The notes beneath the pieces were generated by a model that saw nothing but the letters and a program-made list of their open reading frames with translations, did no database searches and had not been told where the DNA came from. Shown in pieces: positions 52,176 through 55,720 of a stretch of DNA of 64,000 nucleotides. Position 1 is the first letter of the stretch. Every line of letters begins with the position of its first letter. A program made the position numbers and the translations under genes. The DNA comes from an uncultured delta proteobacterium (GTDB lineage Bacteria; Desulfobacterota; Binatia; Binatales; Binataceae), in NCBI GenBank assembly GCA_963711565.1, contig CAVQEQ010000001.1, positions 704,001 through 768,000 of the forward strand, in the 5' to 3' direction.

Positions 52176-52354
52176 GCAGCAATCACTCCACTCCGGCTGC
52201 GGACACCTTCTATTTGGGGATTATGTCTAACTTGACACCCACATCCCCTTGCCTACAAAATGGGCAGCGCGATGTCCAGTCCTGAGCGGCAGATGCCGCA
52301 GTTTGATCTCCGCTTCAAGGCGTGGGCAAATCCATGCCTAAAGTGGGGAGTAAC

Positions 52355-53092
52355 ATGCCGACAAAGAAAAGACGCGAAATCGCAGGCGGGATTGTATTTG
52401 CGGCGGGTGCCATTGGTCCTGCCATTTCATTCATTCGATGGGTGCTGGATGTGATCAGCGAAGGTCAGACCGCAAGCGATCTATGGCAAGCGGCGAAACC
52501 GTGGGCCAGTTGGATTTACCACGGCACCCCCATCTGGTTGAACGGTGTCTTGATGCTGATCGGAATTGGTTTGCTATTTAGTTCGCGCAAGTCTCGCGTT
52601 GTTGAACCAGAAGGCGCGACCGAACAGCAACCCCCCGACTCTCCGCCCAAATTTCGCGACGTGAATGACTTCTATCGGACGTATGACAACGTATTATTGC
52701 GCGAATGCGAAGATAACGTTCGCAAGATGGCGGCCGAGTATCCACCAAACAAGCAGCGTGAAGATTTTTTGCTTCGCAATATAGCGACTCTCACCGTGCT
52801 CGGAATTTTTGAAATGACGTGGTGGAACATTTTCAAATCTCAGCTTGATGCACTCGATCTGCTCAATAAGAAAAATCTAACACTCGACGAATTGCGTGCA
52901 TTCTATGATGAAGGGAAGACGAATTATCCTCATTTATATGAAGGTCGTTCGTTTGAGGCATGGCTCGCATTCATGCGCAACTATGTATTGATTGTCGAGG
53001 AGGGCGAGATAGTAAAAATCACAGTGCGAGGGAAGGAATTTTTAAAATACATGGTTCATTGCAGTTATGATCCGAAATTGAGAGTCGGTTGA
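52355..53092 (+). CDS. IS passenger: membrane-anchored hypothetical protein with a wHTH-like C-terminus
   Basis: Two N-terminal hydrophobic segments; IFKSQL..L..LN...F..WL.F....LI......ITVRGKEFL; lower GC than the flanks. Confidence 0.7.
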   Translation: MPTKKRREIAGGIVFAAGAIGPAISFIRWVLDVISEGQTASDLWQAAKPWASWIYHGTPIWLNGVLMLIGIGLLFSSRKSRVVEPEGATEQQPPDSPPKFRDVNDFYRTYDNVLLRECEDNVRKMAAEYPPNKQREDFLLRNIATLTVLGIFEMTWWNIFKSQLDALDLLNKKNLTLDELRAFYDEGKTNYPHLYEGRSFEAWLAFMRNYVLIVEEGEIVKITVRGKEFLKYMVHCSYDPKLRVG

Positions 53093-53094
53093 TC

Positions 53095-53259
53095 TCACTT
53101 TATGGACGATGGATTTTGTTTAGGTGATTCTCGTTTTCGATTGTGTTTTTTGCGGCGCGCCGGAGTGATGCCGACCTTGTCAGGATCGACGCGAACGAGG
53201 TGCTTGAGTGCTTCATGGAACGTCAACGGATGGAGTGAAACGGGCTTTGCTTTTGGCAT
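53095..53259 (-). CDS. IS passenger: 54-aa basic protein
   Basis: MPKAKPVSLHPLTFHEALKHLVRVDPDK...; ATG directly follows the upstream TAG. Confidence 0.55.
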   Translation of the reverse strand: MPKAKPVSLHPLTFHEALKHLVRVDPDKVGITPARRKKHNRKRESPKQNPSSIK

Positions 53260-53851
53260 CTAACCTACCTTAGGCGGTTCAGGAGTCGCGGCAGTAGGTG
53301 GCGTTCCAAAACTCCTAATCTGGTCGCGTAAAGCTTCTTCCGCGATCGCGATCCGCTCCATATGTTCAGCCGGATCGGTGAACTCGACGGTATCCTCTCT
53401 CAACGTCGCTAGTTGAATCGGGGGACCGACACCGCCAGGTATCGTTTCAATCACATGCTGCACTGTCCACGTCGCTGCGAATCGCGCTTCAGCTACGGTC
53501 GGTATGGCATCTTTCGACGCCCGCACCGAGCATCGGAGCGGCCGTCGCTGCCCATTGTTGGATAGCGCCTATGCGGTTGCCCACTTCTGTTGTAATCCGA
53601 GTCATTATCTCGACTGGCGTTGTGGTACCGCCTAGGTGCTTACCTTTCCAAAGATTCTCAATCGAATTGTGGGCAAGTTGTGCTATCCCGACTGCGCCAG
53701 ACGCGGCGTAGAGTACCTTGTCATCAATGGCCCAGATTTTGGTAACTAATTGCTGACCGATAGTCTGAATCGCGCCCGCAGAGAACGTAGCGGCACTATC
53801 GGCGGCAATCACTACTCCATCGGAACAGAGGATTCCGACAACAACAGTCAC
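53260..53851 (-). pseudogene. IS passenger: proteasome beta-type (Ntn) protease, disrupted
   Basis: N-terminal (M)TVVVGILCSDGVVIAADS..T...K; C-terminal GGVGPPI in another frame; central part apparently missing. Confidence 0.7.
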
Positions 53852-53854
53852 GGC

Positions 53855-54298
53855 TTATTGCCGAAATATGCTGTTGCGGCGCATTTCAGGATAGGTCTTA
53901 TAGATAGATTTGATAAGAGTCTCAAATGAATTATGCCGTGCCCAGCTCACTACTGCGTCCAGATATTTGACTGCTACCTCGTCTAGTCCGGATCGTAATT
54001 CCGCGGCTCGTGCTATGCCCGCTATTGTAGCGATATAGACGCGATGGGAAGCTACCTGCATAGAAATTTCTACGAGTCGTTCCAACTCTAAGATATTTGC
54101 ATCGGAATAGATCGCCGCGCTGAAGGGGCCGTAATCGTATGGTTTAAACTCATAGAACTGCTTACACTTTCGTTGAGCCGCAGTGAGATTTTGACTTATC
54201 AGGAATAGGCTCTTTTGAAGTTGAACAGGGCTGAGCGGTTCGCCCTTCGCCGCGGCGATGGTGAGAAGCGTCCAATCTTTAGGCGACAAAATCATCAT
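53855..54298 (-). CDS. IS passenger: Panacea/SocA (DUF4065)-like protein
   Basis: LQKSLFL, YEFKPYDYGPFS..IY, L...IY..YP motifs. Confidence 0.65.
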   Translation of the reverse strand: MMILSPKDWTLLTIAAAKGEPLSPVQLQKSLFLISQNLTAAQRKCKQFYEFKPYDYGPFSAAIYSDANILELERLVEISMQVASHRVYIATIAGIARAAELRSGLDEVAVKYLDAVVSWARHNSFETLIKSIYKTYPEMRRNSIFRQ

Positions 54299-54443
54299 AA
54301 AGAGTGTATAGACTCCAACAGAGTGCGTCAAATCTGCTTTGGTTTACGCAATAGACGGGGAAATGGCAAGCGGAATTGACCGCCCCTGTCTATGACCAGA
54401 TGGCTGGCTTTGTCCGGCTGAGGTTTCCGCCAGCGAGCTGACC

Positions 54444-55373
54444 TCAGCATCCTGCTATCACGTCGAAGAAAATATTCTTGTTGTCGCGATTGTTGAAGCG
54501 ATACTGAAACTTCGCAAGGTACAGCGGCAGATATTTCTTGCTCACGTTATGGTAGGTGCCGAGCACGCCACGCTTGAGCAGCGACCAGAACGATTCGACG
54601 CTATTCGTATGGACCTCGCCGCGCACGTACTCGCCGGTACTGTGCGAGATCACTTCGTGCGGCATCGCCCATTTCAGATAGCGATAGCCGGAGTGTTCAT
54701 CGGTCGCGACCAGCTTCACTTTATCGCTGACGGTATCGCGCACGAATCGAGTCAGCGTCTCGGTATCGGTGTTCTCGATCATCTTGCAGACCACGTTTCC
54801 CTTGCGGCTGATCGCGCCAATGACGGGAATCTTGCCAGCGGTGCCGCGTCCGCCCTGCTTCTTGTTGAAGTGGCGATTCTTTTCTTTGCCGCCGATATAG
54901 GTTTCGTCAACCTCGACCGTGCCGAGCAACTTCGCCAGCCCGTCATCCTTCATCGCGGCGCGAATACGCATCACCATGTACCACGCCGTGCGGTAATCGC
55001 CGCTTCCGATCTGGCGATGGATTTGAAGCGCGCTGATTCCCTTCTTGCTCTGAGTCATCAGGTAGATCACCTGAAACCAAGTCGAGAGCGGGTAGTTGGT
55101 ATTCTCGAAAATGGTTTTCGTGATGACGCTGAATCGGTAGCCATTGCGCTTGCCGCAATCTGCGTTCTTGCAGATCCAATGGAAGGGGCGTGCCTTCAAT
55201 TCGTATATGCGCTCGCTCTTGCCGCATCGCGGGCATTTCACGTCATCCGGCCAGCGCATATCGCGCAACAGCATTTTGCACGCCGTCTCGTCGCTGAACT
55301 GTTTCATCAACTGAGCGAGCGTGATGTTGGGCTGAGTGCAGAGCGGCTTGCCAGCTTCAACGGATTTCTTCAT
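54444..55373 (-). CDS. IS1595-family DDE transposase
   Basis: CPRC...C zinc ribbon, KGISA.Q, VEVDETYIGG, TDE..GY, HTN.VE.FW..LKR. Confidence 0.95.
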   Translation of the reverse strand: MKKSVEAGKPLCTQPNITLAQLMKQFSDETACKMLLRDMRWPDDVKCPRCGKSERIYELKARPFHWICKNADCGKRNGYRFSVITKTIFENTNYPLSTWFQVIYLMTQSKKGISALQIHRQIGSGDYRTAWYMVMRIRAAMKDDGLAKLLGTVEVDETYIGGKEKNRHFNKKQGGRGTAGKIPVIGAISRKGNVVCKMIENTDTETLTRFVRDTVSDKVKLVATDEHSGYRYLKWAMPHEVISHSTGEYVRGEVHTNSVESFWSLLKRGVLGTYHNVSKKYLPLYLAKFQYRFNNRDNKNIFFDVIAGC

Positions 55374-55427
55374 ACAGAGAAATATAAGGCTTTTTGCGTC
55401 GGGTGTCAAGCCCAACATAATCCCCTT

Positions 55428-55720
55428 CTATTTGGCTTTCTTGCCCTTGCCGGTGAGCTTCACCGATTGCGGATCGCGTTCCGCATTGTCGATGATCATC
55501 AGGGTGGCGTCCTGGGTCGCCGCTTTCGTCAGAGACCAAAGAAACCTGGGCCTTGCACGATTATCTGGCCGCTTACGATCAGGTCACCGACGCCGGTCAG
55601 ATTTCCCTGCACGAACAGATTGCCGTTCACACCAAGGACTGCGTTGCTAAGGGCCAGATTACCCTTAACCGTCACGCCAGCGTTGGTGTAAACAAACCCG
55701 GCAATTGTTACGGGAGGCTG
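55428..55720 (-). pseudogene. Remnants of a surface-protein gene (beta-helix-like stretch and Ig/ASH-domain tail)
   Basis: Startless frames GVTVKGNLALSNAVLGVNGNLFVQGNL... and ATLMIIDNAERDPQSVKLTGKGKKAK*. Confidence 0.4.

Follow-up and report, generated by a model that had tools for sequence, protein, structure and literature searches.

A gene for a small winged-helix protein and, directly downstream of it, a gene for a proteasome-type threonine protease form a conserved, mobile and self-contained pair. One copy lies on an IS1595-family element in the 64,000-nt stretch of DNA analysed here (the window). Both parts are of known kinds, and their combination appears to be undescribed. No description of the pair was found in a literature search that covered few subscription journals. 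The terms 'proteasome', 'Ntn' and 'HslV' do not occur in those supplements of Kurata 2022 (PMC8832971) and Ernits 2023 (PMC10440598) that can be searched, an absence that is no proof, the NCBI name being 'hypothetical'. The reading that we favour, tentatively and short of calling it probable, draws on genes and models and takes the pair for a guard-type module, either toxin-antitoxin or anti-phage. The two proteins would be made together by co-translation, with the winged-helix partner holding the protease in check by binding to it. A trigger, either some product of a phage or the element's loss, would free the protease, which would then act as the effector. If this holds, a threonine protease joins the effectors that Panacea-type domains control.

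IS1595 elements with passenger genes have a Zn-ribbon DDE transposase, terminal inverted repeats (TIRs) of about 25 nt, an 8-bp target-site duplication (TSD) and their cargo inside. The element in the window (Table 1) is alike in all four respects: its transposase scores 217 bits with NF033547 (cut-off 75), transposase, TIRs and TSD surround the cargo, and an empty site is seen. It differs in that the cargo was inserted between the transposase and a small backbone ORF, and in that the pair has been captured by several unrelated IS1595 elements. The genome has only one copy of the element. A contig of depth 13.5 from the soil run X1 links position 52205 to 55424, which is the empty site, and the contigs inside the element have depths of 3–7. 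Since empty and filled sites coexist in this run, the insertion is probably polymorphic and hence recent; the runs X1–X3 belong to one study, possibly the source of the window. The same genome carries three other IS1595 transposases, 40–54% identical, without the pair (G000 C1:169330, C3:1017877, C4:1325342).

Table 1 Features of the IS1595-family element and its cargo (positions in the window)
Feature	Position	Strand	Basis and remarks
IS1595-family element with passenger genes	52216..55425	-	3,210 nt; TIRs, TSD; GC 0.517 vs 0.592 in the window
Target-site duplication TTCTATTT, 8 bp, left copy	52208..52215	.	Sequence
Target-site duplication TTCTATTT, 8 bp, right copy	55426..55433	.	Sequence
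Terminal inverted repeat, 25 nt, left	52216..52240	.	84% complementary to 55401-55425
Terminal inverted repeat, 25 nt, right	55401..55425	.	Pairs with 52216-52240
IS1595 transposase, Zn ribbon and DDE	54444..55373	-	PF12762 (E 1e-40); PF12760; NF033547
Inserted cassette: promoter, partner gene, protease gene	53260..54364	-	1,105 nt; replaces about 21 nt that separate the transposase from the small ORF
Promoter-like site TTGACG-17-TACACT	54303..54331	-	Stops 4 nt short of ATG; would give a leaderless mRNA
SocA/Panacea/DarG-C-like winged-helix partner, 147 aa, intact	53855..54298	-	Motif, fold and profile matches
Proteasome-beta-like Ntn gene, 5' piece	53516..53851	-	Met-Thr1, Asp17, Lys33 and Gly47 equivalents; frame continues, no longer in register, until a stop at 53489
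Proteasome-beta-like Ntn gene, 3' piece, other frame	53260..53514	-	89% identical to P0054 residues 174-256
Basic ORF of 54 aa, IS backbone	53095..53259	-	Directly after the protease TAG at 53260
Second passenger, ORF of 256 aa	52322..53092	+	Two predicted N-terminal membrane segments (hydropathy)

Within this element the cassette is a discrete insert that carries its own promoter-like site, because about 21 nt take its place in the copies of congeners, where transposase and small ORF are spaced by about 104 nt, and in a contig of run X2, which joins 53259 to 54365 with 21 letters between them. The promoter-like site weighs little alone, as four such sites were found against 2.7 ± 1.8 in shuffled sequences. 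The earlier note had described a tight co-oriented run downstream of the transposase, composed of a DUF4065-like gene, an Ntn protease gene three bases further on and a basic 54-aa ORF, and this arrangement was confirmed, on the minus strand. The 54-aa ORF is no part of the module. It belongs to the IS backbone: of 36 congener genomes, 24 have it and 0 have the protease, and it follows an IS1595 transposase at 101–135 nt, without a partner gene, in 12 of 19 fetched non-self loci, while it is absent from all pair loci examined (0/80). In the congeners a second ORF opens within the backbone ORF, some 40 nt in, and uses a different frame, which is closed in the window. It has a conserved signal-peptide-like start and a variable body of about 260–340 aa (L189, L192, L194, L195, L197, L199, L200, L201; from about position 1540 onward), and the IS may supply a leader to variable cargo. 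The 256-aa ORF of the window was likewise rejected as part of the module: it occurs in 0/80 pair loci and is unrelated to the pair. It matches no entry of Pfam, NCBIfam, PADLOC or PHROG. Its C-terminal part resembles a winged helix by eye, and its product is a candidate membrane effector.

Mobilisation by IS1595, as the earlier note had it, was borne out in that carriage is seen in the window and recurs elsewhere; as a general rule it fails, with IS1595 adjoining the pair in only 9/80 loci and most copies not beside one. TIRs of other IS1595 elements enclose the pair in seven of nine loci examined (L025, L032, L048, L052, L053, L060, L061). The ten flanking transposases are 29–40% identical to that of the window and lie in both orientations, so the pair was captured on more than one occasion. 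In L085, L124, L156 and L160, the DNA upstream of the partner resembles what we take, by its motif, to be the end of an IS1-family transposase, a possible second carrier.

The partner protein in the window bears the motif QLQKSLF...F..YDYGPF. Glycine and proline of YGPF are invariant in 108/108 partners, so that the signature known as GPV in Panacea proteins (PMC8832971, as far as accessible) is present with a variant third residue; 12/143 columns of the family are invariant. In 79/80 loci the partner is a stand-alone protein of 140–156 aa. Its model (pLDDT 95.0) consists of a winged helix and a C-terminal helical cap. The best whole-length fold match is the C-terminal domain of DarG (PDB: 7yk3; Z 10.7, rmsd 4.2, 138/147 residues aligned), followed by matches at 8.9 and below. 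The Foldseek search that had been proposed as a check also returned this domain, at E 9e-4; in sequence the two proteins share 12% identity (HMM E 0.96). The commonest weak Pfam match is PF13274 (SocA_Panacea), in 18/76 members with a best E of 2.9e-4. The window partner itself has no Pfam match and scores 17.4 bits with NF047745 against a cut-off of 190. Formal membership in PF13274 or NF047745 is thus ruled out by scores below the curated thresholds. The label DUF4065/Panacea-like consequently holds in the broad sense of YGPF, weak PF13274 matches and DarG fold, and not in the sense of the DUF4065/SocA thresholds. No Panacea or SocA chain is present in the PDB fold lists, which excludes nothing.

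With the PanAT systems and SocAB of Caulobacter the pair shares the two-gene, mobile, toxin-antitoxin-like layout of a Panacea-type locus, the QK..F and YGP motifs and a small stand-alone domain. In contrast to these, the partner has GPF instead of GPV and lies below the Pfam and NCBIfam thresholds, its neighbour is a proteasome-like protease, and it keeps one faithful neighbour instead of many. DarG of DarTG2 is alike in its C-terminal toxin-binding fold and its acidic helix; the partner, however, has no macrodomain, no DarT nearby and no recurring third gene. Identity with the DarG antitoxin was rejected, as neither the N-terminal macrodomain nor an adjacent DarT is found. The C-terminal domain of DarG blocks DarT's active site by ssDNA mimicry (10.1101/2023.12.14.571748), and stand-alone Panacea domains neutralise toxins directly and have been proposed as sensors (PMC10440598), according to the accessible parts of both sources. 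The modelled partner would work in the manner of a Panacea/DarG-type binding domain, with binding predicted. Its having the fold of the toxin-binding domain that blocks DarT is one reason for the guard reading, with the reservation that a shared fold shows no function.

The fold and the upstream region would also suit a genetic switch similar to ImmA/ImmR, in which a winged-helix repressor is cleaved by the protease on a signal. PadR/MarR-like winged helices match the partner with Z 8–8.9, PF03551 is found weakly in 14/76 members, and the promoter in the window contains short ACTC/GAGT inverted repeats. However, a motif search of 109 upstream regions returned ribosome-binding words alone and no shared operator, no regulated gene recurs, and the helix with which PadR-type proteins engage DNA is acidic in the partner, its average charge at three columns being -0.59, -0.96 and -0.67. 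A switch is distinctly improbable.

Domains similar to the partner occur at the N-terminus of a DUF488 protein (P0073), and some type I specificity subunits carry one C-terminally (positions 433–548 of PADLOC Specificity_I), which suggests a reusable domain of defence systems. An assignment to PADLOC PDC-M19 was discarded, since the match to PDC-M19A spans only positions 7–125 of a 294-position model. The best viral fold matches of the partner are uncharacterised proteins of three Sulfolobus viruses (BFVD A8TKI0, A0A2H4RBN9 and A0A3Q8Q497; E 3e-6 to 4e-4), and its look-alike cluster in the Atlas is archaeal, which is a lead only.

The protease gene of the window starts with GTG-Thr at 53851 on the minus strand, three bases (GCC) past the TAA of the partner. 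That it encodes a proteasome-type Ntn protease, as the earlier note supposed, is correct for the family, given the PF00227 match (E 2.8e-7), the N-terminus TVVVG...AADS and the retained Thr1 codon; the window copy is a pseudogene in two frames. The nearest full-length relative, P0054 (257 aa, 81% identical), aligns in two frames with its residues 1–112 and 174–256. A frameshifting deletion has made the window gene 182 nt shorter than that of P0054, with residues ~113–173 gone. The missing part covers, in the model, the loop equivalent to Gly-Ser-Gly and helix H3, and the window copy would be unable to form a folded enzyme. As the gene is broken, the local copy is likely inactive. TIGR03634 gives its 5' piece 35 bits against 224. 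The deletion is known from this assembly, its junction being bridged by none of the listed contigs of four runs; one X2 contig shows 31 unaligned letters at the junction, possibly an undeleted allele or an adapter.

Among intact relatives, Thr1, Asp17, Lys33 and Gly47 are invariant in all 118 non-redundant proteases, in agreement with the Ntn fold of PF00227; inclusion required an N-terminal alignment, a mild bias. The equivalent of Ser129 is serine in 108/118, and the closest clade of the window has Val, Leu or Ile at this position. The proteins start with Met-Thr and have no propeptide. In Ntn enzymes, removal of the methionine would expose Thr1. The monomer model of the intact protease L003 (pLDDT 93.6) matches proteasome beta (Z 22.2), Anbu (21.3), HslV (18.7), BPH (17.4) and connectase (11–11.8), and has a long H2 with an extra helix and a C-terminal H5. 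Fold and catalytic centre are hence common to this family and to 20S proteasome beta, HslV, Anbu and BPH. In contrast to the 20S proteasome, HslUV and Anbu, clustering and Pfam scans of 80 loci detected neither an alpha subunit nor the HslU ATPase nor genes of the Anbu operon as conserved neighbours. True HslV and Anbu genes in the random draws described below reached E 1e-6 to 1e-11 on the family profile and stood without a partner.

Fuchs, Alva and Lupas 2021 list 22 proteasome homologues and state that they found neither genomic contexts nor patterns of co-occurrence for them (PMC8665760). The present family resembles them in Thr1/Asp17/Lys33/Gly47, the lack of a propeptide and of an AAA+ partner, the long H2 with a helical insertion and the C-terminal H5. 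Compared by text only, the core family comes closest to the PHI cluster, and distant members look similar to the WPH cluster (PMC8665760). Accessions were returned for eight of ten family proteins looked up, and none is a listed representative of that study. The pair offers a genomic clue to function for proteasome homologues, of which that study had none. In a 46-row tree calculated with a quick method, one 98% branch parts the core family from five distant paired proteases, an orphan clade and HslV; the tree leaves the deep branches unordered and carries no weight on ancestry.

Connectase shows that proteasome-like proteins can be ligases (PMC8665760, accessible text), and the Ntn protein could by the same token form a small conjugation system with the partner, either attaching it as a connectase-like ligase or trimming it as a specific peptidase. 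A conserved NSVF-xx tail at the end of the partner and one read-through fusion (P0069) are consistent with such a role. Yet the model retains H1 and H2, which are missing in connectase, and its Z of 11–11.8 with connectase compares with 21–22 for proteasome beta; moreover, similar tails occur on related domains fused to other proteins. We regard this explanation as very unlikely.

Conservation of the pairing in homologues, for which a neighbourhood check had been suggested, is far beyond chance. Neither of the two conditions that would have refuted the earlier note came about: the families co-occur with hardly an exception, and the upstream protein is Panacea-like in the broad sense. A profile search of genome contigs with the 147-aa family gave 330 relatives, of which the best 80 were fetched; they come from Pseudomonadota, Acidobacteriota, Chloroflexota, Planctomycetota, Gemmatimonadota, CPR and other phyla. 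The protease gene lies downstream of the partner in 79/80 of these loci, the exception being L057, where it is missing at the locus and genome-wide. One of the 80, L022, is from a genome flagged as unpublished, and none of the conclusions rests on it. Seeded with the protease, a second search gave 294 metagenome relatives, of which 80 were fetched (L108 was uninformative). Partner DNA is found directly upstream in 77/79 informative metagenome loci and on 4/4 viral contigs, together 81/83. L088, in which the partner is present and the protease frameshifted, was counted as paired, and the metagenome loci L126 and L147 have the protease without the partner. Because these seeds came from paired loci, random draws of 4 × 400 genomes from four phyla were made. 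They gave 18 non-centre hits at E ≤ 1e-12, and the partner lies directly upstream in 15 of them (13/16 without two seed duplicates). Eight paired hits were distant (profile E 1e-13 to 1e-19); four of these, when checked, were 26–28% identical to the best seed. Identities of the distant hits to each other and to the core were 20–32%. The three unpaired hits form one genus, the orphan clade. In its three genomes (L173–L175), a WPH-like homologue with its catalytic residues kept is fixed between dprA and topA, without a partner.

Partner and protease genes are separated by a median of 3 nt (range -4 to 32), with a gap of ≤10 nt in 97/107 non-redundant co-oriented pairs, and a start codon precedes Thr1 in 107/107. 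Apart from IS1595 transposases in 9 loci and tyrosine integrases in 6, clustering of the ORFs within 6 kb of 80 loci gave no third gene family. The pairwise identities of one gene are correlated with those of the other (Mantel r 0.48, 0/999 permutations as high), which is no evidence of binding because linked genes share their history. Covariation between the proteins was uninformative, with a top z of 4.8 in 108 pairs against 4.2–5.5 in five shuffled pairings. In P0069, one protein of 383 aa, read-through has fused the partner to the protease; the fusion decays past the S129 region and is probably accidental. The spread of the pair is patchy: besides the 0/36 congeners with the protease, 1,600 drawn genomes gave seven close-family hits.

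The neighbourhood was surveyed with 255 ORFs from 67 de-duplicated loci, 13 near-duplicates having been dropped. A restriction, defence or toxin-antitoxin gene lies within two genes of the pair in 13/67 loci (L008, L009, L013, L014, L015, L026, L037, L038, L042, L043, L058, L072, L080), which is a raw count. Mobile-element genes are near it in 18/67 loci, within two genes in 16 and further off in 2. Prophage-type settings are represented by L046, flanked by terminase and portal genes, and by L050 and L007, which follow a portal and a capsid gene, respectively. Altogether 29/67 loci have a defence or mobile neighbour, and 38/67 have housekeeping or unnamed neighbours. BrxL, AbiU2, a methylase and YhcG were seen among 79 neighbours of 25 viral, metagenome and genome loci. 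The protease had no match in 50,697 annotated phage or 72,556 plasmid records, and none in PADLOC (0/14 proteins).

Decay of the two genes bears on their roles. An intact partner stands beside a faulty protease in 8/78 informative loci and in the window; the protease is disrupted in L011, L014, L032, L052, L054 and L066, inverted in L076 and absent in L057, and L006 and L050, near contig ends, were excluded from this count. In L076 (6438-7220) the protease gene is intact and inverted relative to the partner, directly past the partner's stop codon. Survival of the partner beside a faulty protease implies that the partner is not the toxin. Conversely, an intact protease with all catalytic residues stands without an intact partner in 6/83 informative loci, the partner being lost in L126 and L147 and disrupted in L097, L116, L139 and L157 (L157 may be an assembly error). 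This survival weakens the notion of a constitutively lethal protease; silencing of the protease upon loss of the upstream gene or promoter is compatible with it. A protease antitoxin, RmrA, does exist (PMC10440598, accessible part), and an inverse, RosmerTA-like arrangement would give the role of antitoxin to the protease and that of toxin to the winged-helix protein. Persistence of the partner and its promoter, intact, next to a broken, inverted or absent protease in those 8/78 loci and the window makes this hardly credible.

The guard reading is supported by a pairing that is near-constant, mobile, patchy and placed in prophages and beside restriction systems, by the invariant catalytic residues of the protease, by the acidic helix of the partner and by the survival of an intact partner next to a faulty protease. 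Counting against it are the about equally frequent decay of either gene (8/78 vs 6/83), which is not a strong toxin-first decay, the partnerless dprA/topA clade of three genomes, the 38/67 loci without a defence or mobile neighbour, the lack of matches in PADLOC and in phage or plasmid records, and the Val, Leu or Ile at Ser129 in the closest clade of the window. Similar decay of both genes is what one would predict if neither is of use, or does harm, without the other, as in an adaptor with a dedicated protease, where a SocA-like receptor would bring phage, plasmid or toxin proteins to an ATP-independent proteasome-like particle and neither gene would be toxic. SocA is a proteolytic adaptor for ClpXP (PMC8832971), no AAA+ gene recurs near the pair in the 80 loci, and the many invariant residues of the partner also fit. 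On the other hand, most PanA proteins tested brought about neutralisation by direct binding without ClpXP or Lon (PMC8832971, in the accessible part of that study), and no candidate substrate gene recurs nearby. We consider the adaptor unlikely; if true, the pair would exemplify a proteasome-like enzyme that brings along a receptor for its substrates. Possible, though rather doubtful, is an ATP-independent 'pocket proteasome' of two genes, in which a proteasome-beta-like particle is coupled to a dedicated receptor of the Panacea/DarG type; the receptor would recognise invader proteins, which would be destroyed or used as the on-switch. It would give a first function to the orphan homologues closest to 20S beta, in a partnership of such age that it spans lineages only 22–28% identical. 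Intact 1.3-kb copies of the pair are present in cultured Mesorhizobium, Methylobacterium, Kaistia and Fontivita.
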